Shown here: positions 13,718 through 33,965 of the stretch, one piece after another | How positions within the stretch are numbered: position 1 is the stretch's first letter | How the letters are laid out: every line of letters starts with the position of its first letter | From: a virus | Length of the DNA stretch: 33,965 nt | Virus record (IMG/VR): IMGVR_UViG_3300011115_000086 | Reading direction: 5' to 3' (one strand) | Program-made: the position numbers and the translations under genes | The notes under the pieces: generated by a model | What the model was told of the DNA's origin: nothing | Seen by the model: the letters and a program-made list of their open reading frames with translations, nothing else | Databases searched by the model: none

Positions 13718-13726
13718 GAAAATGCC

Positions 13727-17254: not shown

Positions 17255-17255
17255 C

Positions 17256-17981: not shown

Positions 17982-17990
17982 GGAAAAAAA

Positions 17991-22045: not shown

Positions 22046-22054
22046 GGAAGCATC

Positions 22055-22843
22055 ATGGCAGTAAATCTTTCGCCGATTGGCAACGCCCAGCAATTCTTTG
22101 ACAACACTGGAATTCCTTTAAATGGTGGGTTGTTGTATACCTACCAAGCTGGATCAACCACCCCGCTGGCAACCTATACAGACATCAACGCCACTGTTGC
22201 TAATGCCAATCCAATTGTGCTGGACGCATCTGGACGTTTGGCTAGTGAAGTTTGGCTAACTTATGGCGTGAACTATAAGTTTGTGTTAAAAAATTCCGCA
22301 GGCAGCACCATTGGCACTTATGACAATATTTACGGCATTGTGGGCGTTCAAACTGCGGTTGGCACTACCATCCCACTAGGGGTGATTACGCTTTGGTACG
22401 GGTCGATTGGCAGCGTTCCAACAGGCTGGTATTTGTGCGATGGCGCAAATGGCACACCTGATTTGCGCGATAAATTTATAGTTGCGGCTGGTTCAACCTA
22501 TGCGGTTGGTGCAAGTGGCGGCACTGCTAATTCAATCGTTGTTTCCCACGATCACACATACAGTTCTACAACCGGATCGGCTGGTTCTGCAACTGGTACT
22601 GTTACTGGCGGCTTTGGTAGCGACTTTGGTATATTTAATGGCGCTACTGGGGTTTTTGCTACATCTGGTAGTTTGTCAAATCGTCCTCAAGGTGCAGCCG
22701 GTACTGGAAGCCAAAATACAGCAACACTTACCATCCCAACCCATACCCACACCGTTAGCGGCACAACAACTACTGCTGGTGTGTCTGGCACAAACGCAAA
22801 CTTGCCACCTTATTACGCGCTGGCGTATATCATGAAAAGCTAA
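22055..22843 (+). CDS. Tail fibre protein with a phage tail-collar domain
   Basis: ITLWYGSIGSVPTGWYLCDGANGTPDLRDKFIVAAG is the tail-collar (MdpB-like) signature. Confidence 0.7.
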   Translation: MAVNLSPIGNAQQFFDNTGIPLNGGLLYTYQAGSTTPLATYTDINATVANANPIVLDASGRLASEVWLTYGVNYKFVLKNSAGSTIGTYDNIYGIVGVQTAVGTTIPLGVITLWYGSIGSVPTGWYLCDGANGTPDLRDKFIVAAGSTYAVGASGGTANSIVVSHDHTYSSTTGSAGSATGTVTGGFGSDFGIFNGATGVFATSGSLSNRPQGAAGTGSQNTATLTIPTHTHTVSGTTTTAGVSGTNANLPPYYALAYIMKS

Positions 22844-22845
22844 TC

Positions 22846-23046
22846 ATGGAAGTTGATCTAGTCAAATACGGTGTGCTTTGGCAAAAAGTTCAGGACATGG
22901 ACAAAAAAATGGACAAGGTTGAACGCCAACTTGAAGAACTGGTTGCCTTGGCAAACAAGGGGCGCGGTGGCTTTTGGTTTGGCATGACGTTTGTTTCAGG
23001 CATGTCTGCTGTGGTTGGTTACCTCCTGAACAATTGGAAGCACTGA
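22846..23046 (+). CDS. Tail-anchored small membrane protein (66 aa)
   Basis: Charged coiled-coil N-terminal half (KVQDMDKKMDKVERQLEELVALA), then one C-terminal TM segment (FWFGMTFVSGMSAVVGYLL). Confidence 0.55.
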   Translation: MEVDLVKYGVLWQKVQDMDKKMDKVERQLEELVALANKGRGGFWFGMTFVSGMSAVVGYLLNNWKH

Positions 23047-23047
23047 T

Positions 23048-23173
23048 GTGGAAGCGCTGCCACCACCCCCGCCAGCGGCGCAATCGCCTGTCTTTGAGTG
23101 CATAAAATGGACTTGGACACCTGACCGTCTGCTGGTCTGGTGCTTGCAGTGGCGGGAGAAGAAAAATTATTGA
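23048..23173 (+). CDS. Possible Pro-rich 41-aa ORF (GTG start)
   Basis: The GTG lies 2 nt after the previous stop. Product VEALPPPPPAAQSPVFECIKWTWTPDRLLVWCLQWREKKNY. Its stop TGA 23171-23173 overlaps in-frame ATT 23169 of the next frame. Weak support. Confidence 0.25.
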   Translation: MEALPPPPPAAQSPVFECIKWTWTPDRLLVWCLQWREKKNY

Positions 23174-23246
23174 TCCACTTACAGCCCTAGCAGGCATACA
23201 GGCAGCTGTTGCTCTCATCAAAAAAGTCAGCAAAACTGTTGACGAT

Positions 23247-23636
23247 GTGTCCTCGCTCGGCCCCGTTTTGGGCAAGTACTTCGATGCCAAGTCCACGGCT
23301 ACTAAAGCTGTTGTTCAGGCCAAGAAGTCCAAGTCCTCGATGGGGACTGCTATCCAAATCGAGATGGCGCTGGATCAGGCCAAGCGGTTTGAGGATGAGC
23401 TACAGCTCTTGTTTATGCAAAGCGGAAAGATTGATGTGTGGAACAAGATCAAGTCTAGGGCGGCGGCAATGGATGTGGAATCTGCCCATGACGCTAGACG
23501 GGAACGAGAAGCGGCGGCGCAGCGCAAGCGAGAGATGGATGAAGCAATTGAACTTGCGCTGATGGCGCTTGTCTTTTTTAGCTTGCTTGGCGCTATCCTT
23601 TATTTCAGCTTTGGCATCATGGAGCAGCGTGGGTGA
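23247..23636 (+). CDS. Tail-anchored coiled-coil membrane protein; the true start may be upstream
   Basis: Track ORF (GTG 23247) without an SD. The frame is open from 23106 and encodes plausible sequence (IIDPLTALAGIQAAVALIKKVSKTVDD) after GGGAG plus ATT codons at 23166/23169. C-terminal TM segment LALMALVFFSLLGAILYFSFGI. Confidence 0.55.
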   Translation: MSSLGPVLGKYFDAKSTATKAVVQAKKSKSSMGTAIQIEMALDQAKRFEDELQLLFMQSGKIDVWNKIKSRAAAMDVESAHDARREREAAAQRKREMDEAIELALMALVFFSLLGAILYFSFGIMEQRG

Positions 23637-24241
23637 GCGCCGAACAACTGAGCCTAGTTGACAAGGTGCTGGCGTATGTCAGCAGCCCGTTTCGGTTGTT
23701 CGCAATGGTGTTAATGGCGGTCTTAACATTTGCAGGCTATTTTGTATATACAAACCAAGAACTTCTAATTGGTGCTTACAAGGAATCCAAAAAGATTCCG
23801 TCCATTGCAGAAGATCGGGTCGAGGACGCTGCTGCCCACCTGTTCAAGCAGTCAGGTGCGTTGGTGGTGGCGGTCTTCAAGGTCAACAGCATGTTTGGCA
23901 CAAGGGTGCTGTATAGGGCTTACGGAAAGAATGGCAGAGACAAAACAAATGACGGGCTAGACGTTGGCCTGTTCACCCAGAACGCAGCCAACAATGCCGA
24001 TGTAGTCAAGCTGATGGCAAACGAAATTCCATGCGGAGAATATCGTTCAGCACAAAGTGAAATGGGGCTTTGGTATATTTCCAAAGGTGTTGCCTACACA
24101 TGCCGCATTTCCGTGCCACCTGAACCCGGCAGATTTGTTGGACAAATTACAGTCGGATGGGCGGCAGAACCAGAAGACATGGACAGCACCCGTGCCATGC
24201 TACAAATTGCAGCAACAATGCTTTCAAGGAGTAAACAGTAA
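23633..24241 (+). CDS. Membrane-anchored protein (N-terminal TM plus ~160-aa globular domain)
   Basis: GTGA overlap with the previous gene. TM segment FRLFAMVLMAVLTFAGYFVY. Function unknown; lies directly upstream of the holin. Confidence 0.6.
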   Translation: MSAEQLSLVDKVLAYVSSPFRLFAMVLMAVLTFAGYFVYTNQELLIGAYKESKKIPSIAEDRVEDAAAHLFKQSGALVVAVFKVNSMFGTRVLYRAYGKNGRDKTNDGLDVGLFTQNAANNADVVKLMANEIPCGEYRSAQSEMGLWYISKGVAYTCRISVPPEPGRFVGQITVGWAAEPEDMDSTRAMLQIAATMLSRSKQ

Positions 24242-24738
24242 TGGATTGGCTAAAACAAATTGCGCCCACAATTGCCACTGCAATGGGTGGCCCACTAGCT
24301 GGCATGGCTGTCTCTGCCATCTCTAAAGCTATCGGTGTTGACCCCGACAAGGTGGGCGACTTGATCTCCAACAACAAACTGACAGCAGAGCAAATTGCTC
24401 AGGTCAAGATTGCAGAGATTGAACTGCAAAAGCAGGCGCAGGAACTTGGCCTTAACTTTGAAAAGCTGTCTGTAGAAGATCGAAAGTCTGCGCGTGACAT
24501 GCAGGCTGCGACAAGATCAATCGTGCCGCCTGCGCTGGCTGCAATCATCACTGTTGGCTTTTTTAGCATTCTAATTATGATGATGCTTGGAAAAGTAGAC
24601 GGAAACAACCCAACAATTTTAATGATGCTTGGCAGCTTGTCCACCGCTTGGACAGGAATCATTGCTTACTATTTCGGCTCATCAGCTGGTTCACAAGCCA
24701 AAACCGATCTACTTTCTAAAGCGCCTGCAATCAAATGA
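24241..24738 (+). CDS. Holin (GTA_holin_3TM-like)
   Basis: N-terminal hydrophobic segment, a central charged helix (AEIELQKQAQELGLNFEKLSVEDRKSARDMQ), then two TM segments. Lies directly upstream of, and overlaps, the endolysin gene. Confidence 0.6.
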   Translation: MDWLKQIAPTIATAMGGPLAGMAVSAISKAIGVDPDKVGDLISNNKLTAEQIAQVKIAEIELQKQAQELGLNFEKLSVEDRKSARDMQAATRSIVPPALAAIITVGFFSILIMMMLGKVDGNNPTILMMLGSLSTAWTGIIAYYFGSSAGSQAKTDLLSKAPAIK

Positions 24739-25145
24739 CAGAACATTTTACGCTTGCGGAACTGACCGCCACCAGCCACCGCCAGTTTGACAACACGCCA
24801 AACGAAACAGAAACTGCCAACTTGCAAAAGCTGGCTGAGTTTTTAGAACAAGTCAAAGAAGCGTTAGACGGAAAGCCAATCATGATTAACAGCGCTTTCC
24901 GGTCAAAGCAAGTCAACGACTCTGTAGGCAGCAAAGACACCAGCCAGCACCGAACGGGCTGCGCCGCTGATTTTAAAGTGCCTAGCATGACCCCTGACGC
25001 AGTGGTGAGGGCAATCATTGCGGCTGGCCTACCTTATGATCAGATCATCCGTGAATTTGACGCATGGACGCACATTAGCATCAGCGACACACCGCGCAGG
25101 CAGGCGCTGGTGATTGACAAATCAGGAACTAGGCCATTTGCGTAG
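24735..25145 (+). CDS. Endolysin, peptidase M15 (VanY / L-Ala-D-Glu peptidase-like)
   Basis: HFTLAELT..., INSAFRSKQVNDSVGSKDTSQHRTGCAADF and DAWTHIS give the H-D-H zinc ligand pattern of M15 peptidases. Confidence 0.85.
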   Translation: MTEHFTLAELTATSHRQFDNTPNETETANLQKLAEFLEQVKEALDGKPIMINSAFRSKQVNDSVGSKDTSQHRTGCAADFKVPSMTPDAVVRAIIAAGLPYDQIIREFDAWTHISISDTPRRQALVIDKSGTRPFA

Positions 25146-25236
25146 CGCCTTTAGTGGGTGCTGTCTCTCCAGCAGTCACGCATTTGCCGCCTGCGTTTGG
25201 CGAACTTACCAACCCACTCGGTAATCCGTAAAAACC

Positions 25237-25665
25237 CTAGAGGTTGGTTGCAATTGGTGGTGTGCATGTGTGAATTGTGGTCAGGTCAGCAGTGCGCTTG
25301 CCGCAGCGGGGGCAGAAGTTGCGCTCCTGCACTGGCAGGGGTGCTACACAGTTACATTCAGCGCAAGGCTCAGTGACAAAGTGTCGGAATGTCTGACAAG
25401 TTACGCCATGCGCTTCATACCGTTCAACCACTTTTAGCAGGTCAAAGTAATGTGACGCCAGTTTTGCGTTTGTGTCATTCACATCACGCGCTGCTTCAGC
25501 ATTGACTTCCTCGCGGGTAGGCTCCTGCTCTGGCTGTGCCAAGGCTTCTTTGATGGCGGTGATGGCATCATCAATCGTAGTATTGCCAAAGCCCATTGCG
25601 GGGCTGTACATTTTTTGCAGCTTCAAATATTCCAGCGCCAGCTTCAGTGCTTCGTCTTTAGTCAT
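25237..25665 (-). CDS. Hypothetical protein with a C-terminal zinc-ribbon-like Cys cluster (142 aa)
   Basis: ATG 25665 with GAAGGAGAAG upstream; ATGA overlap with the upstream gene. CAECNC...CPRCGK near the C-terminus. Track start 25737 is rejected. Confidence 0.6.
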   Translation of the reverse strand: MTKDEALKLALEYLKLQKMYSPAMGFGNTTIDDAITAIKEALAQPEQEPTREEVNAEAARDVNDTNAKLASHYFDLLKVVERYEAHGVTCQTFRHFVTEPCAECNCVAPLPVQERNFCPRCGKRTADLTTIHTCTPPIATNL

Positions 25666-25928
25666 GTGTTCTTCTCCTTCAAAGCCTTTTCCACAGCCTC
25701 CATAAACACCAGCCAGTCGGCAGACATGGCCCCGCACTCAAGCGCAATAGCCTCGCGCTCCCACTCGGTCAGGCCGACCCATTGTCGGTTTGAGGAATGC
25801 TCTTGAGGAATCTGAGGAATGGCTTGGGTAATGGCTTGGTGCTCAGGCAACACCTGTATCCGGTAAAACATCGCCTTGCCCTTATCGTAGAAGTCGTGGT
25901 TTCTTCCTGTGATGTAGCTTTTTTTCAT
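25662..25928 (-). CDS. Hypothetical early protein (88 aa)
   Basis: ATG 25928 overlaps the stop of the 31-aa ORF (ATGA). Contains GLTEWEREAIALECG. Confidence 0.55.
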   Translation of the reverse strand: MKKSYITGRNHDFYDKGKAMFYRIQVLPEHQAITQAIPQIPQEHSSNRQWVGLTEWEREAIALECGAMSADWLVFMEAVEKALKEKNT

Positions 25929-26020
25929 ATCAGCAGACTCCAAATCCAAAGCCCCGTAAAGAACATCAGGGCCGCTATCACCACCAGCGCCACCAGCTTC
26001 AGTGCTTCGTGTTTAGTCAT
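25925..26020 (-). CDS. 31-aa single-TM micropeptide
   Basis: MTKHEALKLVALVVIAALMFFTGLWIWSLLI. ATGA overlaps at both ends. The C-terminal 11 aa are identical to the end of the 89-aa protein at 26289-26558. Confidence 0.5.
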   Translation of the reverse strand: MTKHEALKLVALVVIAALMFFTGLWIWSLLI

Positions 26021-26292
26021 GCTTGTCCCCTTGCCTCAATCCATTTTGGAAACATCTTGCTCTGCGCTGGATAATTTTTATGCCAATCAGCAGAAGCCTT
26101 TTCATTCAGCCATTTCACGCCGTTTTCAAGGTCGGACATTACACATGAGTGCCACTCAGCGTAGATTTCTTCACGCTCTGCTGCTGCGACAAGGGCGGCA
26201 AAGCGCTCAAGGAATTTACGGTCTTCTTTAAGAGTGTGCTCCCAATCGTCACCAGCCTCACGCGCCATGCGGATGATGTCTTCGTTGGTCAT
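26017..26292 (-). CDS. Hypothetical early protein (91 aa)
   Basis: ATG 26292 with GGAG upstream; ATGA overlaps at both ends. MTNEDIIRMAREAG...FAALVAAAEREE. The longer track start 26397 is rejected. Confidence 0.55.
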   Translation of the reverse strand: MTNEDIIRMAREAGDDWEHTLKEDRKFLERFAALVAAAEREEIYAEWHSCVMSDLENGVKWLNEKASADWHKNYPAQSKMFPKWIEARGQA

Positions 26293-26558
26293 ATCAGTAA
26301 ACTCCAAATCCAAAGGCCGGTAAAAAACGCCATAGCAAAGAACACCATCAGCACTGCCATTACAGCGCCGATCATCAGCCGCCCCACTGTGTGCCATGTG
26401 TCCGGCACTGGGTCGATGTTGGCGGGTATCGCCGGATACGGGGCGATCTTGCGAATGGTTGTCTCCCCCGTGTCAAGAATAGCATCCGTAAATTGGCAGA
26501 AGCTGGCGCATTGTGGCGTATGTGGGCAGATGCCCCCCGTGTCGCATTGCCTATTCAT
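26289..26558 (-). CDS. Cys-rich protein with a C-terminal TM anchor (89 aa)
   Basis: N-terminus CDTGGICPHTPQCASFC; C-terminus LMIGAVMAVLMVFFAMAFFTGLWIWSLLI. ATGA overlaps at both ends. Confidence 0.55.
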   Translation of the reverse strand: MNRQCDTGGICPHTPQCASFCQFTDAILDTGETTIRKIAPYPAIPANIDPVPDTWHTVGRLMIGAVMAVLMVFFAMAFFTGLWIWSLLI

Positions 26559-26854
26559 ATTAATTCCCTTTGAAATGGGCTAATTTTCCATTCGCGTTCC
26601 ATGCGCCCTGAATAAGACTTGACAACATTACCCGTCAAGCAGATTTCGCCCTCACGTTCTAGTTCGTGCAGCCGTCTAGCAACTTGCATGGATTCAAGCC
26701 CCGTTATGGCGGCTATGCCATCTTTACCCAATGCGCCACCTTTGGCTAAACAATCCACAATCATTTGGGCGTGGCGTTTGGCAAGGTCTTTTGCAGACCC
26801 CGCCGCCTGCCAGCTGGTCAAAGGGTCTGTTTTTCTGTTTCTTGGATGCCGCAT
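26555..26854 (-). CDS. Winged-helix (MarR-like) DNA-binding protein
   Basis: IVDCLAKGGALGKDGIAAITGLESMQVARRLHELEREGEI is a typical wHTH recognition region. Confidence 0.55.
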   Translation of the reverse strand: MRHPRNRKTDPLTSWQAAGSAKDLAKRHAQMIVDCLAKGGALGKDGIAAITGLESMQVARRLHELEREGEICLTGNVVKSYSGRMEREWKISPFQRELI

Positions 26855-26863
26855 GGCTATTCC

Positions 26864-27118
26864 TTAAAAGGGTATGTCATCACGCATATCGTCAAACCCG
26901 CTTTGGGGGGCTTTGGGCGCTTCTTTTTCTTCTAAGTCGTAGCAATTAGCCCAGCCATTCCAGCCACCATCACTTAGGGGAAGTGAATCAAGTTTGATTT
27001 TTAGGTTTTCGTTGTCATCTAAAAAAACTGATCCAATGGTTTGGTAACGTTTTTTCTCTTGCCCCTCGCGGGTTTTGTATGTGCCAGTGATCACAACAAT
27101 GTTTTTAAATTTTTTCAT
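26864..27118 (-). CDS. Miniature SSB-like protein ending in the acidic DDIPF tip (84 aa)
   Basis: Directly downstream of the exonuclease. The C-terminus FDDMRDDIPF equals the canonical SSB C-terminal tip motif. The N-terminal ~60 aa are beta-rich (NIVVITGTYKTREGQEKKRYQTIGSVF). Confidence 0.5.
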   Translation of the reverse strand: MKKFKNIVVITGTYKTREGQEKKRYQTIGSVFLDDNENLKIKLDSLPLSDGGWNGWANCYDLEEKEAPKAPQSGFDDMRDDIPF

Positions 27119-27119
27119 G

Positions 27120-27731
27120 TCAGTCTTTCAGTTTGTTAAGTTGGGTAATTTTGTCTTCTAAGTCAAGCAAAAAATTGATGATTTCTTTGTCAAGTTTGCC
27201 AACATAAACAGGGTCAAATTCAACCCGTTTGATGAACAGCTGCAAGCCCTCTGCCATGCGTGGATCAAAACTTACATAGTCACACCAATGGCGCTGAGTG
27301 CAAGCCATTTGCCATTGCATTTGCGTGTTGTACTTTTCAGGCACTTTCTGTTCAAGCAATGTTTGAATGTGGGTTGCGGTGTTGGGGCATTTGATTTCCA
27401 CCAGCCCAAATTCCCCCACAAGGCCATCAGGGGACGCGCCAGCCTCTGAAAATGATGGGTGCGGTACAAACCCCACTTCTTCAACTAAAACGTCTTTGGC
27501 AGACTCATAGGCGGCACGGGCAAAAGGTTCTTGCTCAGTACCCCAAGCCATTGCCGCATTGCTGTATGACTCTGCGGGTTTGCCCGTCATGCGCTCACAG
27601 ACCAGTTGGGCAAGGTAGTTCTCGCGGCTGGTGCTGTAACCTGTTTTGGTCTTGGCGATAATGTCTGCCACACGGCTAGCGGTGACCTTGCCACACCTAG
27701 CGGCAAACCATTCTTCAGATCGTTGTTCCAT
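27120..27731 (-). CDS. YqaJ-type (lambda Exo-like) recombination exonuclease
   Basis: MEQRSEEWFAARCGKVTASRVADI..., GASPDGLV and LVEIKCP form the PD-(D/E)XK YqaJ signature. Confidence 0.9.
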   Translation of the reverse strand: MEQRSEEWFAARCGKVTASRVADIIAKTKTGYSTSRENYLAQLVCERMTGKPAESYSNAAMAWGTEQEPFARAAYESAKDVLVEEVGFVPHPSFSEAGASPDGLVGEFGLVEIKCPNTATHIQTLLEQKVPEKYNTQMQWQMACTQRHWCDYVSFDPRMAEGLQLFIKRVEFDPVYVGKLDKEIINFLLDLEDKITQLNKLKD

Positions 27732-27936
27732 TTGTAATCTCCAGTTTTGTTTGATTTAAAAGAAAATAAATAGCCATGTCAATTTGGCTTGCGGCTTTGT
27801 AGGCACGTTTACGCATATCGGAAGTGCGATGAAATTCTTCTAAATCTTTCATTGCCAGTTCCATGTGCGACTGCGATAGTTCCTCTAAAGCGCGTTTTGC
27901 CATGACCAGTGTGTCAAGAGAAATTTCAGGTTTCAT
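27715..27936 (-). CDS. Hypothetical helical protein (73 aa)
   Basis: Track ORF. The start immediately follows the erf stop; 17-nt overlap with the exonuclease start. Confidence 0.5.
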   Translation of the reverse strand: MKPEISLDTLVMAKRALEELSQSHMELAMKDLEEFHRTSDMRKRAYKAASQIDMAIYFLLNQTKLEITNGTTI

Positions 27937-28500
27937 TTATCCCCCCACTTTTGATTTTTTGGCATCTTTATGTGCAATGACTTTCTTTTGCCAAGTTGGG
28001 TCACCATTGGTTGCGGCATACGCTGCCTTGTAAGTCTTTTGCAAATCTTCTAGCGTGGTGGTTTCGTCCATTGCCGCCATCAGGTCGATTATTTGGTTTT
28101 CATTGACCGTGGACTTGATTTCGGTGCGGCGGCTGGCGCTGTTGCCATCGTCATCTTCAGGCGCAATCCCAGCTGCTGCCATCAGCGAATACCTACGAGC
28201 GTAGGTCAAGGCTGACCCGTATCCCTGTGGATCATGTTTGGCGGCGGGAACGTGGAGGATGCCGCATTCCAACGTTTCGCCACTTTCGTGGACAAAGACT
28301 GTTTCCACCATCACGCCGTCTGTGCAGTCATAGCATTTTTGGATCAGTGCTATCCCGTTGTCGTTCAAGCCTGTGATGACAGCTTCTACGCAGGCAGAAA
28401 GGTCTGCGTAACGCGATCTGAAGTGCGGGTTGGTGCTGGACTTCAGGGCTGGGCCAAAAGCCTTTTGTGCCTTGACAAGTGCGGTTGCAATTTGTTTCAT
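27937..28500 (-). CDS. erf: ERF-family single-strand annealing protein
   Basis: ALVKAQKAFGPALKSSTNPHFRSRYADLSACVEAV matches the ERF family N-terminal signature. RBS AAGGAGAACCC. Paired with the YqaJ exonuclease. Confidence 0.8.
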   Translation of the reverse strand: MKQIATALVKAQKAFGPALKSSTNPHFRSRYADLSACVEAVITGLNDNGIALIQKCYDCTDGVMVETVFVHESGETLECGILHVPAAKHDPQGYGSALTYARRYSLMAAAGIAPEDDDGNSASRRTEIKSTVNENQIIDLMAAMDETTTLEDLQKTYKAAYAATNGDPTWQKKVIAHKDAKKSKVGG

Positions 28501-28549
28501 GGGTTCTCCTTAGTGCGTAACATGGGTTAAAAAAACGTATTTCATAGGG

Positions 28550-28666
28550 CTATGGCCTCCAGATAAAAACATCAAGGGCAACCACTACGATTGCTGTAAT
28601 GGACACGATCCACAGGGCGACTTGCGCCCAGTCGGTAGGCTTGCTGTACTTTTCTATTTCAAACAT
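28550..28666 (-). CDS. 38-aa single-TM micropeptide
   Basis: MFEIEKYSKPTDWAQVALWIVSITAIVVVALDVFIWRP. AAGGA lies 6 nt upstream, directly after the GNRA hairpin. Below the track cutoff. Confidence 0.45.
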   Translation of the reverse strand: MFEIEKYSKPTDWAQVALWIVSITAIVVVALDVFIWRP

Positions 28667-28681
28667 GATTGATCCTTTGAT

Positions 28682-28695
28682 GGGGCTTGCGCCCC
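28682..28695 (-). promoter_or_regulatory. Intercistronic GNRA-tetraloop hairpin (GGGGC GCAA GCCCC on the transcript)
   Basis: Perfect 5-bp GC stem with a GCAA loop on the minus strand, 7 nt after stop 28703 and 3 nt before the next RBS. No U tract follows. Confidence 0.7.
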
Positions 28696-28702
28696 GTTAA
28701 AT

Positions 28703-28954
28703 TTACTCTTTGACAGTGCCAACTAAAGCGCCATCCATGATTTCAAACAAAATGGCTTTGGCACGATTTAGGCTTTGTCTAGCGCCCTCTAAATCATCAA
28801 ACTCTATTTGTGTTTGAGCATCTGACATCAGGCCAGCAACCACCATGTTTGCGCCAGTAAATTTGTAGGTGACTGAGTTTTTGACCGAAGCAATGAATTG
28901 ATTGATGTCATTGACACCGTACATAGCTTGGTTGTTTGATTGAGTAGCTTGCAT
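28703..28954 (-). CDS. Hypothetical early protein (83 aa)
   Basis: Track ORF. RBS AAGGAAATCAAAATG. Preceded by promoter-leader copy A. Confidence 0.55.
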   Translation of the reverse strand: MQATQSNNQAMYGVNDINQFIASVKNSVTYKFTGANMVVAGLMSDAQTQIEFDDLEGARQSLNRAKAILFEIMDGALVGTVKE

Positions 28955-29000
28955 TTTGATTTCCTTAAAGACCCTATGCGTTGTGCTGGGGAATGAATGT

Positions 29001-29029
29001 ATTATTAAGCAGGCTTAACAAGAGGTCAA
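29001..29029 (-). promoter_or_regulatory. Sigma70-like internal leftward promoter (copy A)
   Basis: Minus strand TTGACC (29029-29024), 17-nt spacer, AATAAT (29006-29001). The spacer holds the inverted repeat TTAAGC ag GCTTAA (29005-29018). Confidence 0.55.
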
Positions 29030-29094
29030 GCCTTTTCGCTAGGTGTTTTCCCTAAGTTGTTCAAAAAAGCCACAACTTGTAAAACTCCCATTTT

Positions 29095-29310
29095 TTACTC
29101 TTGAACGTCAGCAATTTTTTTGGCGTAGGCAACAGCCTGATCCAACATGGTGGCGGAATAGATGCGGGTGGCAACAATCATTTCGGCATCAGTGTCCAGC
29201 AGGGTCACTGCGTAGCCTTTTTTGGTCTGAGTGACCAAAGAAGAAATGCCGTAAAAAACGTTGACAAATGTTGCCACTTGCGCGGTGTTTGAAATTTGAG
29301 AAATAACCAT
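29095..29310 (-). CDS. Hypothetical early protein (71 aa)
   Basis: Track ORF. RBS AAGGAGTAAAAAAATG directly after the second GNRA hairpin. Confidence 0.55.
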   Translation of the reverse strand: MVISQISNTAQVATFVNVFYGISSLVTQTKKGYAVTLLDTDAEMIVATRIYSATMLDQAVAYAKKIADVQE

Positions 29311-29326
29311 TTTTTTACTCCTTAGA

Positions 29327-29342
29327 GGGGGCTTGCGCCCCC
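29327..29342 (-). promoter_or_regulatory. Intercistronic GNRA-tetraloop hairpin (GGGGGC GCAA GCCCCC on the transcript)
   Basis: Perfect 6-bp GC stem with a GCAA loop, 6 nt after stop 29349 and 3 nt before AAGGAG. Same core and similar flanks as 28682-28695. Confidence 0.7.
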
Positions 29343-29348
29343 GATTGA

Positions 29349-29939
29349 TTAAGCTGCCAACAAGCCCACTGCACCGTAGCCGTAACCGTCATCACCTAGA
29401 AAGGCTACACGGGCTAACGTGGCGCTTTGTGCGGCATCGTCCATGCTGTATTCGCTGGCTGCTTCCCGAATGATTCGTTCAATGTCTCTAGTTTCGTAAC
29501 CGCGAGAAGCGCTGCCAGCGTTGGGGCCGACTGCCTTAATCGAAGCGCCAAAATACTGACCGCCGCTATCAATCAAAACTTCGTTGTCGAACCCAAAACG
29601 GTTGCACACATCAACAGCCACGCCTGTCAAAATTGGTGCGGTAAACCGGCGATTTACAAAAATAAAATCAGCACCAAACGAAACTGGCTGACCGTCCAAG
29701 CTGCTGTAATTGTTGCCCTTGTAATCGGTCATGCCGTCAAAATAAGAGCCTTCAAACATGCTGACAACAGCCTTGACTTGGCTGGCGTTAGGGCCGTCAG
29801 TGTAGGAAACATTGATGCTAGCGCCGCCAGCGTAGCTGCTGGACTTGACACTGAACTTGACGCCGGGGAATGACTCTTTGAGAGCCGCCCGAACCAACTT
29901 TGCGGTTTCGGAACAAGAGAGGTATTGAGTGCTTGACAT
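29349..29939 (-). CDS. First leftward early gene; resembles the polyvalent-protein-associated domain LPD29
   Basis: SETAKLVRAALKESFPGVKFSVKSSSYAGGASINVSYTDGPNASQVKAVVSMFEGSYFDGMTDY matches my recollection of the LPD29 family pattern. Strong RBS TAAGGAGAAAGCAAATG. Confidence 0.5.
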   Translation of the reverse strand: MSSTQYLSCSETAKLVRAALKESFPGVKFSVKSSSYAGGASINVSYTDGPNASQVKAVVSMFEGSYFDGMTDYKGNNYSSLDGQPVSFGADFIFVNRRFTAPILTGVAVDVCNRFGFDNEVLIDSGGQYFGASIKAVGPNAGSASRGYETRDIERIIREAASEYSMDDAAQSATLARVAFLGDDGYGYGAVGLLAA

Positions 29940-29986
29940 TTGCTTTCTCCTTAAAGACCCCGTGCAATTTGCTAGGGAATGACTGA

Positions 29987-30015
29987 ATAATAAGCTAGCT
30001 TAATAGCCTTGTCAA
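29987..30015 (-). promoter_or_regulatory. Sigma70-like leftward early promoter (copy B)
   Basis: Minus strand TTGACA (30015-30010), 17-nt spacer, TATTAT (29992-29987). The perfect 12-bp palindrome TAAGCTAGCTTA (29991-30002) overlaps the -10 and the spacer. Confidence 0.65.
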
Positions 30016-30051
30016 CTGTTGTTTGTAAAGCCCCCTTAACTTTGTCGGGTA

Positions 30052-30081
30052 TTGACAAGTTGGCATAAGTTGGCTTACTAT
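30052..30081 (+). promoter_or_regulatory. Sigma70-like rightward early promoter
   Basis: TTGACA (30052-30057), 18-nt spacer, TACTAT (30076-30081). The spacer holds the direct repeat AAGTTGGC at 30057-30064 and 30067-30074. ATG 30088 lies 7 nt after the -10. Confidence 0.65.
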
Positions 30082-30087
30082 GCGAGG

Positions 30088-30246
30088 ATGGAAAAAGAGC
30101 AAGCAATAAATTTAGCGGGGTCGGCGAGAAAATTAGCAGAGATGCTAGGGATCAGCCGTGCCGCCATCAGCCAGTGGGGTGTGACCATCCCACAGGCACG
30201 GGTGTGGCAGTTGAAAGCCATGCGCCCTGATTGGTTTGGTAAATAA
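30088..30246 (+). CDS. Cro / YdaS-like HTH regulator (52 aa)
   Basis: AINLAGSARKLAEMLGISRAAISQWGVTIPQARVWQLKAMRPDWF is the YdaS/Cro-type HTH pattern. ATG 30088 is preferred because track start 30052 is the promoter -35 itself. Confidence 0.75.
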   Translation: MEKEQAINLAGSARKLAEMLGISRAAISQWGVTIPQARVWQLKAMRPDWFGK

Positions 30247-30266
30247 ATTTACAGGGGGGAAAGCGG

Positions 30267-30356
30267 ATGCTGGCAAGTCGTTGTTCTAGGCGGCGCAGGT
30301 TGAACCCAAAACGCCAGACGCAGCGAGTACCCCCACCTTTTAATTTTGATGTATGA
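30267..30356 (+). CDS. Arg-rich 29-aa micro-ORF (speculative)
   Basis: MLASRCSRRRRLNPKRQTQRVPPPFNFDV. AGGGGGGA lies 6 nt upstream of the ATG. Sits between the cro-like gene and the long terminator. Confidence 0.3.
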   Translation: MLASRCSRRRRLNPKRQTQRVPPPFNFDV

Positions 30357-30388
30357 TTTCACATCCCTTGGCGGGGAATTTTCAGCAA

Positions 30389-30468
30389 GACTTAGACGGG
30401 ACACTGCTGGTGCTGACCAGTCCGCCAACACCGGAAACGGTGAGTGTCTCGCCTAAGTCTTTTTTTTT
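30389..30468 (+). terminator. Long-stem intrinsic terminator between the cro-like and replication genes
   Basis: GACTTAGACGGGACAC (30389-30404) pairs with GTGTCTCGCCTAAGTC (30444-30459): 16 bp with one mismatch and one G-U. Nine Ts follow (30460-30468). The 39-nt apical part contains CTGGT gctg ACCAG. Confidence 0.75.
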
Positions 30469-30475
30469 GGACTTT

Positions 30476-31249
30476 ATGCACTACTACCAATTCAACATTG
30501 GTGACTATGTAAGCCACACCCGGCATCTCTCACCCATCGAAGACATTGCTTACAGGCGCTTGCTTGATGCCTACTATCTAAGTGAACGCCCGTTGAACAG
30601 CGGTATAGCGGTGGTTGCACGGCAGATCGGCTTAAAAGATCATGAATCAGAGGTACATGAGGTACTTCAGGAATTTTTTAAGCTGACTGAAGATGGCTGG
30701 ATAAACACCCGTGCAGACAAGGAAATTGCCCACTTCAAAGGGAAAATTGAACAGGCGTCTAGGGCTGGTAAAGCATCTGCTGAACGCCGGAGCAACCCCC
30801 GTTCAACGGACGTTCAACCAACCAATAACCAAGAACCAATAACCATTAACCAAGAACTATTGAAGAAGCAGCGCGGGTCGCGCCTGCCTCAAGACTTTGT
30901 GTTCCCAAAGGAATGGGCAGACTTCTGCATACAGCAACGACCAGACCTTAACTTGCAGAACACGTTTGATTCGTTTAAAGACTTTTGGACTGCAAAGGCT
31001 GGGTCTGGTGGTGTTAAGCTGGATTGGCTGGCGACATGGCGCAACTGGGTTCGCAATCAGTCAGTCCCGAAGGCATCTTTTGCACAGATCAATGCGGATA
31101 TAGCCCGAACAACAGTGCCTAGAAATCAAGCCTATGAGGACACGCAACGCAGACTAAGGGAGGAGGCTGACAGAAATTGCAGCGGCCCTTCCTTGGAGGT
31201 TTTGGCGAAGATGGCAGCTATTCGCGGCGGTGTGAAGGAGAGCATGTGA
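30476..31249 (+). CDS. DUF1376 / YdaU-like replication-associated protein
   Basis: MHYYQFNIGDYVSHTRHLSPIEDIAYRRLLDAYYLSERPL is the DUF1376 N-terminal signature. The position after a YdaS-like gene mirrors the Rac prophage ydaS-ydaU order. Track start 30353 would run through the terminator. Confidence 0.7.
   Translation: MHYYQFNIGDYVSHTRHLSPIEDIAYRRLLDAYYLSERPLNSGIAVVARQIGLKDHESEVHEVLQEFFKLTEDGWINTRADKEIAHFKGKIEQASRAGKASAERRSNPRSTDVQPTNNQEPITINQELLKKQRGSRLPQDFVFPKEWADFCIQQRPDLNLQNTFDSFKDFWTAKAGSGGVKLDWLATWRNWVRNQSVPKASFAQINADIARTTVPRNQAYEDTQRRLREEADRNCSGPSLEVLAKMAAIRGGVKESM
30816..30861 (+). repeat. Tandem heptamer array AACCAAK (about 6 units) inside the replication gene
   Basis: AACC AACCAAT AACCAAG AACCAAT AACCATT AACCAAG AACTATT, preceded by the direct repeat GTTCAAC at 30801 and 30812. 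Confidence 0.85.
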
Positions 31250-31521
31250 ATCGTGAAGTAGCAAACAAACTTTTGGACAAAGCCCGTGAAGGACACAGGT
31301 ACACCCTTGAAGAAATCAGCGCCGCCCTCTACGCAAGTGGCGACCTACATGATCCGCTGCGAAGCGCGGGAATGGCATCGGCGCTATCGGGCCAAGGTGA
31401 AACAATTGGGCAGTGTGAGAGCGCAAAGCTGGTGGCATCAAGTGAAAACAGACATTGTGCAGATTCGTGGGCAGGCTACAGCCGATATCTTGATAAACGA
31501 AATGAACAGGCAGCAGCATGA
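31246..31521 (+). CDS. Hypothetical protein (91 aa, GTG start)
   Basis: GTG 31246 with AAGGAG 8 nt upstream, overlapping the previous stop. Its own stop overlaps the next start (ATGA at 31518-31521). Confidence 0.5.
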   Translation: MNREVANKLLDKAREGHRYTLEEISAALYASGDLHDPLRSAGMASALSGQGETIGQCESAKLVASSENRHCADSWAGYSRYLDKRNEQAAA

Positions 31522-31784
31522 GACACGCAGCAAGAATTGATGCCAATCAAGCGCAAATCGTAAGCGCACTTAGGGCGGCTGGCGCTTATGTGTGGATCAT
31601 CAGTCTGCCAGTTGACCTTTTGGTTGGTTACAAGGGTCACACATTCTTGGTGGAAGTCAAAACCAACGCTAAAAAGCGTTTAACGGCCCTACAAGACGAT
31701 TTTTTTAAGAATTGGTCTGGCAGTACCTTGGCAAGAATTGACAGCCCTGAAGCCGCCCTACGCATGATTGGAGTGTTGAAATGA
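31518..31784 (+). CDS. VRR-NUC-like PD-(D/E)XK nuclease (88 aa)
   Basis: IDANQAQIVSALRAAGAYVW...PVDLLVGYKGHTFLVEVKTN...LTALQDDF fits the VRR-NUC arrangement. Confidence 0.5.
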   Translation: MRHAARIDANQAQIVSALRAAGAYVWIISLPVDLLVGYKGHTFLVEVKTNAKKRLTALQDDFFKNWSGSTLARIDSPEAALRMIGVLK

Positions 31785-32110
31785 AGCCTGAAGAAGCCGC
31801 CGAAAGCATACGCAACAAAGCCCCGGCCTACGGTGAAGCCAAAGCCCAGCGGGTTTACCTTGAAGAATTCCGCAAAAGCCAAAAAGCTATGTTGATGAAA
31901 GAATCCTTAGAGATGGGCTACGAAGCTGCCAATGCCCAAGAGCGCGAAGCCTACGCAAGCCCTGTTTACCAAAAGCTGTTGAACGGTTTGGCTGTGGCAA
32001 TTGAGCAGGAGGAAACCCTTAAATGGCAAATTGAAGCTGCTAGGCTTGACATTGAAATCTGGCGAACACGCGAAGCCACCAATCGACTGCAAGATAGGGC
32101 GCATCAATGA
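31781..32110 (+). CDS. Hypothetical coiled-coil protein (109 aa)
   Basis: Track ORF; ATGA overlaps at both ends; helical charged composition. Confidence 0.55.
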   Translation: MKPEEAAESIRNKAPAYGEAKAQRVYLEEFRKSQKAMLMKESLEMGYEAANAQEREAYASPVYQKLLNGLAVAIEQEETLKWQIEAARLDIEIWRTREATNRLQDRAHQ

Positions 32111-32292
32111 AATGTCCCGAATGCGGGGCTTGGACAACAGTAAAAGACACCCGATTAATTACAGACACCAGCCGCCGCCGAAAAATGGAATGCGCCAATC
32201 TGCACCGATTCACCACACTGGAGACAATAATTGTTTCAAAAACACCAATACATAAGAAGCAAAAAGCTATTAAGACTAGTGGCGGGGCTTGA
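32107..32292 (+). CDS. NrdR-like zinc-ribbon protein (61 aa)
   Basis: MKCPECGAWTTVKDTRLITDTSRRRKMECANLHRFTTLE parallels the NrdR N-terminal zinc ribbon (CPFC...V.DSR...RRR.C..C..RFTT.E). Confidence 0.5.
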   Translation: MKCPECGAWTTVKDTRLITDTSRRRKMECANLHRFTTLETIIVSKTPIHKKQKAIKTSGGA

Positions 32293-32563
32293 CTGCCAAG
32301 CCTGCGGGTCAGGCGGCATGGTGCAGGCAGCGCACAGCAACTGGGGAGGCGGCAAGGGCCGAGGCATCAAGGCTGATGACAACCTTGTGGCGGCGCTGTG
32401 CCTGAAGTGCCATTTTGAGATTGACCAAGGCAAAGACCTGACCAAGGAAGAACGCCAAGAAAAGTGGCGCAAGGCCCACGCTGCTACGGTTGAAAAATTG
32501 TGTGACCAAGGGGCTTGGCCCTCTGACGTTCCGCTGCCTATAATGGAAGCGCAGTTGTCTTAA
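32231..32563 (+). CDS. DUF1364 / YbcO-like protein (putative nuclease); start uncertain
   Basis: CQACGSGGMVQAAHSNWGGGKGRGIKADDNLVAALCLKCHFEID matches the YbcO-family Cys/His pattern. ATG 32231 overlaps the previous gene by 62 nt; GTG 32279 is an alternative. Confidence 0.55.
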   Translation: MFQKHQYIRSKKLLRLVAGLDCQACGSGGMVQAAHSNWGGGKGRGIKADDNLVAALCLKCHFEIDQGKDLTKEERQEKWRKAHAATVEKLCDQGAWPSDVPLPIMEAQLS

Positions 32564-32564
32564 C

Positions 32565-32591
32565 GGGGGGTGTTGCAACCCCCCTTTTTTT
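32565..32591 (+). terminator. Rho-independent terminator closing the rightward early operon
   Basis: GGGGGGT gttgc A CCCCCC (G6/C6 plus T-A), followed by seven Ts (32585-32591). It starts 2 nt after stop 32563. Confidence 0.85.
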
Positions 32592-32599
32592 GATATAGT
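32591..32599 (+). promoter_or_regulatory. Extended -10 promoter element TGATATAGT
   Basis: TGn-TATAGT. The last base is 7 nt upstream of ATG 32606 and there is no purine-rich SD in between. No good -35. Confidence 0.45.
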
Positions 32600-32605
32600 G
32601 CCAAC

Positions 32606-32965
32606 ATGAACGAAGAAGTAGCCGAATTTGTAGCGCAACTGCTGCACAGCAGTACGGTGACGCATTTCATGCACTGGTCAACGACCAGCTATGCAAAACA
32701 TGTAGCGTTAGGGGAGTACTATGTCCAAATTGTTGACTTGGTTGACCAATTTGCCGAAGCGTATATGGGCAAATATGATCAGCTTAAAAAATTTCCTGAT
32801 GAGTTTCACACAGAAAAAGACCCCGTGAAATACTTGGAAGGAATGAAAGAATTTGTGGAAGAATCCCGCGAGGAACTACCACAAGACTCAGAATTGCAAA
32901 ATTTGGTGGATGAAATCGCCGACTTGATCAATTCAACCTTGTACAAACTGCGTTTTCTTAACTAA
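32606..32965 (+). CDS. Helical protein with a Dps/ferritin-like pattern (119 aa)
   Basis: LLHSSTVTHFMHWSTTSYAKHVALGEYYVQIVDLVDQFAEAYMG resembles the Dps helix A/B pattern (HW.v.G..F..lH..l.e.y...D..AE). Confidence 0.4.
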   Translation: MNEEVAEFVAQLLHSSTVTHFMHWSTTSYAKHVALGEYYVQIVDLVDQFAEAYMGKYDQLKKFPDEFHTEKDPVKYLEGMKEFVEESREELPQDSELQNLVDEIADLINSTLYKLRFLN

Positions 32966-32974
32966 GGAAAAATC

Positions 32975-33187
32975 ATGGCGAATATGATGAAGAACGAACC
33001 CAAAGGCTACGGCGCGTCTGCTTCTATGTCGGGCAAAGCAACCGCTTCTGACGCCACAGGCACACAGGGAAGCGCCAAAAAAAGCATTCCCGCTGCTAAA
33101 ACCAACATGACTGGCGCTGACAAGTCATTTGGCGGTGGACGTTCCAGCGGCGTTTGCTACTCGCATGACCGCAAATGTAGCCAGTAA
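32975..33187 (+). CDS. Low-complexity Gly/Ser/Ala/Lys-rich protein (70 aa)
   Basis: Track ORF with RBS AAGGAAAAATC. The stop shares its A with the kinase ATG (TAATG). Predicted disordered from composition. Confidence 0.5.
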   Translation: MANMMKNEPKGYGASASMSGKATASDATGTQGSAKKSIPAAKTNMTGADKSFGGGRSSGVCYSHDRKCSQ

Positions 33188-33965
33188 TGCCAATTCCGCT
33201 GTCCAGCATGATGGCGGCGGGACAACCAGCGCCTGTTCCTGACCAAAACAGGGCATCGGCGCTTATCCCGCAGGGCCAGCCACAATCGCAAGACCCGATT
33301 GAGCAGGAGTATTTTGACAATTTAAATAATAATTATTTAAAATTGCGTCAGAATTACGCTGCTATAAAAGACTCTGACGGCGGGAAAATTTTAAGCACAG
33401 ACATTGCGCGGGAATTGTCCCCGCACTACTTGGCTGACCGCACAAAGTCTGCCAATGTGCATGAGCCATCTAGCCAATTTATCAAGCGGGTTTATGCGGA
33501 AAAGCTGTCAAATCCAACCCCAAAGGGAAGCGACAACACGGTTGTTTTCACTGCTGGCGGCACTGGGGCTGGAAAAACCACTGCTTTAAAAGGGCTTACA
33601 AACGTCTCTGAATTGGTCAAACGGGCCGAAATAGTGTACGACACCAACATGAACAAGTTTGAAAGTTCCGACAAAAAAATCCAGCAGGCGTTAAGAGGCA
33701 ACCGCAACGTTCAGATCATTTACACCTACCGCGATCCTGTAGAAGCCTTAGAAAATGGTGCGCTAAAACGCGCCAACGGGCAAGAAAAAGAATTTGGCAC
33801 TGGCAGAACTGTGCCCATCGGCGAACATCTAAAAACGCACATTGGCGCATTAAACACTGTTTATGAATTGCAGGAAAAATACAAAAATAACCCAAAAGTC
33901 AAGATACAAGTCATTGATAATTCGCGTGGCGCTGGCAAATCTTTTGTAAGTTCGCTTGACAAGCT
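33187..33965 (+). CDS. Zeta-toxin-like P-loop kinase, N-terminal 259 codons (continues at 128-245 of the circle)
   Basis: Open frame from ATG 33187 to the window end, so it is absent from the ORF track. Walker A GGTGAGKT at 33556-33579, then IVYDTNM and GRTVPIGEH..., similar to zeta/PezT family kinases. Confidence 0.6.
   Translation, partial: MPIPLSSMMAAGQPAPVPDQNRASALIPQGQPQSQDPIEQEYFDNLNNNYLKLRQNYAAIKDSDGGKILSTDIARELSPHYLADRTKSANVHEPSSQFIKRVYAEKLSNPTPKGSDNTVVFTAGGTGAGKTTALKGLTNVSELVKRAEIVYDTNMNKFESSDKKIQQALRGNRNVQIIYTYRDPVEALENGALKRANGQEKEFGTGRTVPIGEHLKTHIGALNTVYELQEKYKNNPKVKIQVIDNSRGAGKSFVSSLDK
33839..33965. repeat. Second copy of the 127-bp terminal overlap
   Basis: Identical to 1-127 by direct reading. 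Confidence 0.95.

Follow-up and report, generated by a model that had tools for sequence, protein, structure and literature searches.

A free-standing zeta-type kinase with a downstream overlapping partner gene in a predicted leaderless late operon of an uncultivated freshwater phage

A gene for a zeta-toxin-like kinase that stands by itself in a phage genome raises the question of whether it is the toxin half of a toxin-antitoxin unit, and of which neighbouring gene, if any, is its partner. Such a gene lies at the right end of the IMG/VR virus record IMGVR_UViG_3300011115_000086, whose 33,965 nucleotides (nt) were analysed as a whole and are called the window here. The initial annotation had described a separately promoted and apparently leaderless unit of three genes, encoding a Dps-like protein of 119 amino acids (aa), a disordered 70-aa protein as the unusual partner, and a 298-aa zeta/PezT-like kinase. 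Its coordinates all held, namely those of the terminator, the promoter element, the three open reading frames (ORFs), the Walker A motif and the wrap of the kinase gene across the junction to position 245, and so did the kinase family, while the unit and the partner had to be redrawn. The kinase gene and a 65-aa ORF overlapping its 3' end form a two-gene accessory insert, an anatomy of which we are highly confident, and the genes around it most likely head a late (or delayed) operon.

The window represents a complete genome of 33,838 bp in circular form, with 127 bp repeated exactly at the two ends (1-127 = 33839-33965); this repeat is most likely a circular-assembly overlap, alternatively a short direct terminal repeat. 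The phage was assigned to a large, uncultivated freshwater phage group with genomes of ~33-36 kb and a P22-type portal, coat and small terminase. Gene order was surveyed in the 77 viral contigs that were closest by similarity to the 119-aa protein, a member of family DUF5856, and that had enough downstream sequence. The DUF5856 gene, the 70-aa gene, a gene for a four-Cys zinc ribbon and the GroES gene were found without the kinase in 50 of the 77, the same backbone genes plus the kinase in 18, and neither the 70-aa gene nor the kinase in the other 9. When the window was compared with the closest kinase-less relative (contig L098), positions 32501-33193 aligned at 89.8% and positions 373-867 at 93.5%, and the 1,017 nt between them, holding the kinase gene and the 65-aa ORF, were absent from the relative. 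The insert starts 7 nt after the kinase ATG, and its site is the junction of the 70-aa stop codon with the next start. About half of the related phages carry this cassette. Ahead of the kinase start no promoter was found, and the sole promoter-like match lay inside the kinase gene (33314-33343).

The kinase is almost certainly a zeta family member of the rewired ng_zeta1 subclass. It matched Pfam PF06414 (Zeta_toxin) at E 3.4e-12, with 46.6 bits where 22.3 is the cutoff, and all 120 of the 120 kinase homologues among the matches listed carried the same family. Its best sequence match in the PDB was 6EPH (ng_zeta1, E 3e-7), with a HMMER alignment collinear over residues 56-289. The AlphaFold2 model, made with 54 homologues, reached a predicted local distance difference test (pLDDT) score of 88, with residues 1-30 disordered and two terminal helices. 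Foldseek matches to this model were led by the ng_zeta1 structures 6EPG, 6EPH and 6EPI (E 4e-14 to 2e-12), with a query-normalised template modelling (TM) score of 0.71-0.73 and a target-normalised score of 0.56. Zeta, PezT and AvrRxo1 were found at E ~1e-4 to 2e-3 and TM 0.34-0.45 (AvrRxo1 E 3e-4, TM 0.45), and the top 11 PDB matches consisted of ng_zeta1, zeta and AvrRxo1, with PezT appearing above E 1e-3. By profile and by fold, the zeta/PezT-like assignment of the initial annotation was thus upheld, and the profile outcome that would have counted against it, a best match to an ordinary dNMP, thymidylate or polynucleotide kinase, did not arise.

In ng_zeta1, a toxin of Neisseria gonorrhoeae, two sequence blocks are swapped, with the catalytic Asp56, which deprotonates the substrate hydroxyl, placed before the P-loop Lys115 (Rocker et al. 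2018, PMC5923241). The phage kinase has the same block order: a disordered, Pro/Gln-rich stretch (residues 1-35) is followed by the block TDIAREL with D72, the Walker A motif GGTGAGKT (33556-33579, residues 124-131) with K130, and then D152 and the predicted phosphate-binding residues R195 and R207. In the alignment of the two proteins, D72 corresponds to Asp56, R75 to Lys59, K130 to Lys115 and R195 to Arg175, while R207 falls beside Arg181. D72, R75, K130, R195 and R207 were invariant among 54 phage homologues and at least 95% conserved over 146 mostly polyvalent domains, free-standing and fused, and the same was true of G124-K130. The motifs IVYDTNM and GRTVPIGEH are present as described earlier. 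The former had been taken for a zeta motif, but because the phage kinase shares the block order of ng_zeta1 with D72 aligned to Asp56, the Asp of IVYDTNM is not the catalytic base; the predicted catalytic Asp is D72, N-terminal to the P-loop. The streptococcal zeta and PezT proteins (UDP-N-acetylglucosamine (UNAG) 3'-kinases) and Xanthomonas AvrRxo1 (an NAD kinase) share PF06414, the P-loop kinase fold and the catalytic logic with the phage protein, whereas their blocks follow the classical order, in which the P-loop comes before the Asp. Ng_zeta1, the best match in both structure and sequence, has the rewired topology and the Asp/Lys/Arg residues in common with the phage kinase, to which it is 17-19% identical. 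Only one homologue of the kinase was found in the phage GenBank collection, and the literature search for characterised free-standing phage zeta kinases found nothing. In the BFVD library, a 279-aa P-loop protein of Brazilian cedratvirus (A0A2R8FDL0) also matched the kinase structurally (E 1.6e-14, TM 0.71-0.75), and a rewired zeta-type kinase may therefore occur in eukaryotic giant viruses as well.

The gene that co-occurs strictly with the kinase gene is the downstream 65-aa ORF, and not the 70-aa gene upstream. After removal of identical regions, it was found in 57/57 unique kinase-bearing regions, including those of a distant group without the 70-aa gene, and in 0/57 kinase-less regions. 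Its Shine-Dalgarno (SD) sequence, AAGGAAG (154-160), lies within kinase codons, and SD and ATG were kept in 46 of 47 unique versions. The part of the ORF that does not overlap the kinase gene varies as a coding sequence does: differences numbered 8,628 at the third codon position versus 5,492 and 4,522 elsewhere, and synonymous changes made up 36% of codon differences in the 65-aa frame versus 10% and 3% in the other two. The protein evolves faster than the kinase (28-88% identity among relatives versus 55-92%). Its N-terminal half is Pro-rich; its C-terminal half, helical-looking by inspection, contains the motif [ST]PAEHR...AE..A.ALN.AV and is probably an amphipathic helix as far as the sequence can tell. 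The 65-aa profile matched no family in Pfam or the PDB. Neither 65-aa nor 70-aa segments were found inside the fused polyvalent relatives of the kinase, and no ORF with the ALN motif was found downstream of 32 kinase homologues in bacterial genomes.

A function for the 65-aa protein is suggested by analogy. Ng_epsilon1, the antitoxin of ng_zeta1, covers the ATP site in the form of an extended, non-globular chain (PMC5923241), so that a small, poorly structured inhibitor has a precedent in this subclass; the earlier contrast of the phage system with helical antitoxins had overlooked this case. By that analogy the 65-aa protein may be an inhibitory partner of the kinase, to which we give slightly less than an even chance. 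Like ng_zeta1, the phage kinase is paired with a small protein that looks non-globular. The arrangement is different, since the phage partner gene lies downstream of the kinase gene and overlaps it, since its product has no sequence relation to epsilon1, and since the pair lies inside a late operon without a promoter of its own instead of in a plasmid or chromosomal toxin-antitoxin operon. The antitoxins of zeta and PezT and the chaperone-like partner of AvrRxo1 differ from it as well, being helical and encoded differently from the 65-aa ORF.

The relatives of the kinase are mostly parts of very large proteins. An exhaustive profile-free search gave 2,175 relatives, and the best 149 representatives were 45-59% identical over the whole domain. 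Of these 149, 131 were longer than 450 aa and had the kinase as an internal domain (median 875 aa, longest 4,522 aa), which agrees with the link to phage polyvalent proteins that had been suggested for this kinase. Pfam partner domains in 51 of them were ddrB-ParB (8), SLT (2) and InPase, SAM lyase, NUDIX and ART-PolyVal (1 each). Close relatives in bacterial genomes were 42-53% identical and nearly all located in ORFs of 749-3,375 aa, and the matches in a viral structure library were large proteins named 'Zeta toxin domain containing'. In the phage sequence MW202577, an 878-aa protein ends in the homologous kinase domain. To our knowledge, zeta domains of polyvalent proteins are common and none has been characterised. 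The phage kinase shares with them the conserved residues and the setting of conflict in phages or conjugative elements, while it is a single-domain, free-standing protein of 298 aa with a dedicated 65-aa partner that the fused forms lack. For zeta-like kinases in polyvalent proteins, a role in weakening the cell wall at entry was proposed by Iyer et al. 2017 (PMC5512222). In contig L074 (2588-6367) the kinase domain was seen in a 1259-aa protein whose N-terminus resembles an SLT transglycosylase by eye.

The backbone genes in front of the cassette follow a terminator and a promoter element that abut each other. The strong terminator reported at this place is supported by the sequence and by paired stem changes in relatives. 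Its stem (32565-32584, GGGGGGT/ACCCCCC) has 7 pairs, 6 of them G-C, with the loop GTTGCA, and the T7 tract occupies 32585-32591; it is the strongest terminator-like site on the + strand of the genome. In most relatives the hairpin and T-run were kept, and two-sided changes preserved pairing in the variants cGGGGG..CCCCCg, tGGGGG..CCCCCa and GCGGGC..GCCCGC. The extended -10 element TGATATAGT is separated from ATG 32606 by the 6-nt spacer GCCAAC; an SD sequence is absent, and a convincing -35 was not found for this promoter. The motifs alone did not exceed chance, with 3 occurrences of TGNTATANT in the genome versus 2.0 expected and 8 terminator-like matches in the region versus 7.8 expected, and therefore the case for promoter and terminator rests on the relatives. 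In 64 of 74 unique upstream regions, a count taken from mutually related phages that overstates the number of independent events, the best -10-like hexamer ended exactly 6 nt before the DUF5856 ATG, in the forms TATAGT, TATATT, TATCAT, TAATAT, TATTAT, TACATT, TAAGAT and TAGAAT and with varying spacer letters. The TG extension was present in 49/74 and an SD in only 4/74, whereas most other genes in the rest of the genome have an SD. The subgroup without the hairpin (L132 and L135 types) retained TGATATAGT-N6-ATG.

A second gene of the same phage has this geometry. The P22_Cro-like gene (30088-30246) is preceded by TTGACA(30052)-18-TACTAT(30076-30081)-N6-ATG, and most of the ~38 relatives compared kept the N6 distance while the letters of the -10 and spacer varied. 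Since cro and DUF5856 share the N6 geometry, leaderless starts look like a habit of this phage group, which supports the leaderless interpretation. On this comparative evidence the DUF5856 transcript quite probably begins at the A of ATG 32606 as a leaderless mRNA, in agreement with the geometry noted in the initial annotation, and leaderless first cistrons seem to be used systematically by the group. The placement of the -10 so that transcription would start at the AUG, and the absence of an SD, resemble lambda cI transcribed from PRM, and a -35-less promoter downstream of an Ogr/Delta-like zinc-finger gene recalls the activator-dependent late promoters of P2 (Ogr/Delta). Different from both is that in this phage the putatively leaderless gene opens a long late operon as its first cistron and abuts a terminator; no TGT-N12-ACA site of the Ogr type was seen by eye near -55. 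The 61-aa zinc ribbon encoded two genes upstream matched PF22811 (NrdR-like, 1.1e-8) and PF04606 (Ogr/Delta, 6.2e-6, 26.5 bits versus a cutoff of 26.3); as a matter of speculation, it is a candidate activator of the -35-less promoter. The sequence CAGTTG(C/T)C, which may be a regulatory site or reflect a coding constraint, was found in 44 of 81 unique upstream regions; it lies 47-62 nt 5' of the start codon of DUF5856 and immediately ahead of the terminator hairpin, and the copy in the window (32553-32560) overlaps the final codons of the HNH/DUF968 gene.

Transcription that starts here does not appear to end after the kinase gene. No + strand terminator of comparable quality was found between 245 and ~25145, through the structural and lysis genes, and therefore the three genes most likely form the head of a late operon and not a unit closed by a terminator. 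The four-Cys protein of 78 aa is encoded directly 3' of the 70-aa gene in kinase-less phages and always before GroES; its gene probably has GTG 353 as start codon, inside the end of the 65-aa ORF. The features of the locus are listed in Table 1.

Table 1. Features at the head of the predicted late operon (window coordinates; the circular genome continues from 33965 into the repeated bases)
Feature	Position	Strand	Remarks
Kinase gene, 298 aa, 5' part (residues 1-260)	33187..33965	+	PF06414
Kinase gene, 3' part, stop TGA 243-245	1..245	+	bases 1-127 repeat 33839-33965
65-aa ORF, MTRLNRPEE...SPAEHREGRMLEKATRTLAEEMSAALNKAVLAEEAGYPSRGA	166..363	+	overlaps last 80 nt of kinase gene, other frame
Accessory insert, 1,017 nt (kinase and 65-aa ORF), parts 33194..33965 and 128..372	33194..372	+	absent from L098
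Intrinsic terminator, end of early-right operon	32565..32591	+	hairpin and T7 tract
Extended -10 element TGATATAGT	32591..32599	+	predicted leaderless start at A of ATG 32606
DUF5856 gene, 119 aa, backbone	32606..32965	+	PF19174, phrog_858
70-aa gene, backbone	32975..33187	+	stop overlaps next ATG (TAATG)
78-aa four-Cys zinc-ribbon-like gene (CAGC...CRRYP...WCGE), backbone	353..589	+	no Pfam family
GroES/Cpn10 gene, likely start ATG 570, backbone	552..827	+	followed by DUF6321, then terminase
61-aa Ogr/Delta-like or NrdR-like zinc ribbon	32107..32292	+	two genes upstream of promoter; Pfam matches

Taken together, we favour, with moderate confidence, a leaderless late operon that carries an accessory ng_zeta1-type kinase and a 65-aa partner restraining it. 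In this model the intrinsic terminator would stop early-right transcription, and the extended -10 promoter directly after it would start a new transcript at the A of the DUF5856 ATG, perhaps assisted by the Ogr/Delta-like zinc-finger protein. This transcript would continue through the DUF5856, 70-aa, zinc-ribbon and GroES genes into the terminase and structural genes. The kinase would phosphorylate a UDP-activated amino sugar on a hydroxyl with the gamma-phosphate taken from ATP, the sugar being either UNAG or UDP-N-acetylmuramic acid (UNAM) as for ng_zeta1, and thereby might drain the precursors of cell wall and lipopolysaccharide in the infected cell. The 65-aa protein, translated from its own SD inside the 3' end of the kinase gene, would bind the kinase and restrain or time it, much as immunity proteins or antitoxins do. 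Ng_zeta1 phosphorylates the 4'-OH of UNAM or UNAG, and E. coli was lysed by it within 30 min (PMC5923241). A UDP-activated sugar is the likeliest substrate because this closest characterised enzyme acts on UNAM and UNAG; as an argument by analogy it is given tentatively, and a UDP-sugar substrate seems possible to us, at rather less than even chances. New in this locus is the arrangement, a free-standing cassette of two genes in which the partner gene lies downstream and overlaps, set in a predicted leaderless late operon; the parts are each of known kinds.

Several points weigh against this model. The OB-fold domain at the C-terminus of ng_zeta1 is absent from the phage kinase (298 versus 401 aa). 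According to the sequence alignment, the UNAM contact Asn75 is not conserved, its place being taken by A89, which is nearly invariant and has N90 beside it, and a further UNAM contact, Lys59, is replaced, though conservatively, by the invariant R75. In polyvalent proteins the kinase domain mostly lies beside nucleotide-directed domains, with cell-wall domains being rarer (SLT in 2 of 51), and therefore the substrate may not be a cell-wall precursor. As to the partner, the Pfam and PDB profile searches gave no similarity of the 65-aa protein to ng_epsilon1 or any known antitoxin, and its gene is located downstream and not upstream of the kinase gene. The phage encodes its own endolysin, and therefore no role in lysis is required of the kinase. 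For the promoter, the poor -35 means that it may be weak or dependent on an activator, and the phylogenetic non-independence of the relatives inflates the support drawn from counts such as that for the -10 spacing.

Some of these points would fit the main rival for the function, a nucleotide kinase with a role in anti-defence. Here the kinase would phosphorylate NAD+ (giving 3'-NADP in the manner of AvrRxo1), ADP-ribose or a nucleotide immune signal and so shield the phage from NAD-depleting or signal-based defence, with the 65-aa protein as its regulator. AvrRxo1 shares the fold family and was matched significantly by Foldseek, the domains beside the nearest relatives (ddrB-ParB, NUDIX, InPase, SAM lyase, ART-PolyVal) act on nucleotides or nucleic acids, and the UNAM-specific residue of ng_zeta1 is not conserved. 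However, the kinase model is ten orders of magnitude nearer to ng_zeta1 than to AvrRxo1 (TM 0.72 versus 0.45) and has both the D-x-x-[KR]-E-L block and the rewired topology in common with ng_zeta1. The NCBIfam model for XopAJ/AvrRxo1 scored 12.8 bits against a cutoff of 300, PADLOC gave insignificant matches only, and no other match tied the kinase to defence. We therefore regard this alternative as rather unlikely.

A second alternative concerns the start of the operon and not the enzyme. The DUF5856 message might not be leaderless if it came from read-through or antitermination of the early transcript, with TATAGT-N6-ATG serving as a binding site or a translation signal. The lack of a good -35 and the unenriched TGNTATANT would be explained in this way, and a stronger-looking promoter, TTGGCC-18-TATAAT (32515-32544), precedes the terminator in an order that recalls lambda PR'-tR'. 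This candidate was set aside as a minor rival, as it lies within a coding region and distant relatives do not conserve it. The -10 at the N6 distance survives in the subgroup that has no hairpin, the same distance occurs at cro behind a canonical -35/-10 promoter, and the rarity of an SD at DUF5856 stands apart from its usual presence at other genes. A leadered message is for these reasons considered unlikely.

The leaderless late operon with a restrained kinase also has to be weighed against delivery of the kinase in the virion. In such a scheme the kinase would be made late, held inactive by the 65-aa protein, packaged and injected, and it would act early in the next host, a mode of action that has been suggested for polyvalent proteins. 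The position within the late operon suits this, as do the homologous domains in large proteins of the structural module (the 878-aa protein of MW202577 and the 1259-aa protein of L074), the disordered, linker-like N-terminal 35 residues and the lack of the 65-aa partner in fused forms. Immunity genes of polymorphic toxins usually lie directly downstream of the toxin gene, and the partner gene of the kinase is in this position. On the other side, the kinase gene is distant from the genes for ejection proteins, to which the SLT-bearing 891-aa protein (19370-22045) presumably belongs; a producer cell near lysis has little need for protection; and the free 33-kDa protein has no obvious capsid-targeting signal. 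Packaging of the kinase thus appears quite improbable.

The kinase and its 65-aa partner could also be a new type of effector-immunity pair, in which the kinase is a minimal portable form of the polyvalent zeta domain that is either injected with the DNA or let go by its partner at a given moment, and is aimed at a nucleotide-derived metabolite or immune signal, or at the UDP-sugars needed to renew receptors and envelope. We consider this a long shot, but if true it would be a new enzymatic mechanism of host takeover or anti-defence, distributed patchily across a very abundant clade of freshwater phages. Independently of its target, a stand-alone kinase of 298 aa with intact catalytic residues and a small partner gives convenient access to the zeta domains of polyvalent proteins, giant proteins that are hard to handle, and the near-isogenic natural phages without the 1-kb insert open tests of the substrate, the toxicity and the restraint of polyvalent zeta kinases. 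Conserved in front of cro as well as of the first late gene, the N6 geometry makes a clear case, by comparison of relatives, that a phage can use leaderless first cistrons systematically.

The arrangement supposed in the initial annotation, in which the upstream 70-aa protein is the partner, would make the locus a classical epsilon/zeta toxin-antitoxin system for addiction or abortive infection, with this protein as antitoxin. The 70-aa stop does overlap the kinase start (TAATG), a 70-aa homologue occurs in every kinase-bearing phage of the core group, and ng_epsilon1 shows that zeta antitoxins may be non-globular. The protein was confirmed as basic and rich in Gly, Ser and Ala (51% Gly/Ser/Ala/Thr), and has the conserved C-terminal motif F-x-G-G-[RK]-x-x-G-[VI]-C-Y-[ST]-H-x-R; its profile matched nothing in Pfam or the PDB and had no similarity to ng_epsilon1. 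Gene distribution, however, speaks against this role. The 70-aa gene was present in 48 unique kinase-less regions and, among the 77 loci closest by DUF5856, in the 50 with the backbone but no kinase. The versions in kinase-less phages were 71-84% identical, and their stop overlapped the start of the next backbone gene, that of the zinc ribbon, in the same TAATG fashion. All pairwise combinations of the DUF5856, 70-aa and kinase genes were found somewhere, and a more distant group pairs DUF5856 with the kinase without the 70-aa gene. The 70-aa family is also the larger one (1254 clusters by profile search versus 545 for the kinase, although search methods and cut-offs differ). Since phages without the kinase carry it, the 70-aa gene belongs to the backbone and does not encode an antitoxin specific to the kinase, and the same distribution of the DUF5856 gene separates both from the kinase as a unit.

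Addiction also finds little footing in the genome as a whole. The kinase gene lacks its own promoter, and neither an integrase nor an excisionase nor a CI-type repressor was detected anywhere in the genome, which bears out the earlier statement that the phage has no lysogeny genes. Among 185,579 genomes of bacteria and archaea that were scanned, no close, prophage-borne copy of the kinase was found, the best match being 53% identical and located inside a large ORF for a polyvalent protein; because no close copy was obtained, the scan yielded neither evidence of lysogeny nor a host assignment. A classical toxin-antitoxin pair with the 70-aa protein is thus largely refuted by gene distribution, and we regard it as highly improbable.

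An ordinary thymidylate, deoxynucleoside monophosphate (dNMP) or polynucleotide kinase of nucleotide metabolism, for which the P-loop kinase fold and the label 'thymidylate kinase' on a homologue in MW202577 and in one JGI record could be quoted, is the least credible explanation, as no dNMP or thymidylate kinase family was above threshold (dNK E 0.13), Foldseek was led by the zeta family with polynucleotide kinase only at E 1e-2 and TM 0.26 and no dNMP or thymidylate kinase among the matches, and the conserved residues are the zeta-kinase set. Profile and fold evidence make the name 'thymidylate kinase' wrong for these homologues, and the present analysis corrects such database names. The GenBank entry in question is MW202577.1 (locus L001 4117-6753).

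The 119-aa product of the first gene matched PF19174 (DUF5856) at 2.5e-24 and phrog_858 (PHROG 858) at 2.8e-29. The initial annotation had called it a helical protein with a Dps/ferritin-like pattern. Its AlphaFold2 model (pLDDT 83) is a four-helix bundle with a long crossover loop, and the invariant H23, H32, D47 and E51 align with the E. coli Dps ferroxidase ligands H51, H63, D78 and E82, that is, with 4 of the 5 ligands. The helical part of that description therefore stood, while every match to Dps was sub-threshold: the PDB profile gave E 0.3-0.4, hhalign gave E 0.0035 with a probability of 9%, and Foldseek had no significant match for the model (best E 0.26, with ferritin-like proteins at TM 0.5-0.58). 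The protein is also shorter than Dps (119 versus ~160 aa). Because of the hhalign probability and the Foldseek result, the assignment was held at a probable one, and the model would fit a miniature Dps/ferritin-like metal-binding protein. The JGI name for DUF5856 relatives is 'DNA-binding ferritin-like protein', and the literature search on DUF5856 found nothing.

Among other genes of the phage are those for the P22_Cro-like protein, Erf, a YqaJ-type exonuclease, a DUF1376 replication protein and the HNH/DUF968 protein, besides the endolysin and the 891-aa SLT protein; the latter has no kinase domain. When the window was scanned in full against Rfam, no RNA family matched. The genes that separate the cassette from the terminase include one (985-1257) for a DUF6321 protein, basic and low in complexity, and in contig L054 a DUF6321-like ORF was found directly 5' of the kinase gene. 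A gene (29349-29939, - strand) for a protein with LPD29 (polyvalent-protein-associated domain 29) lies divergent from cro, where a CI repressor gene would sit, and is preceded by the near-consensus promoter TTGACA-17-TATTAT (30015-29987).

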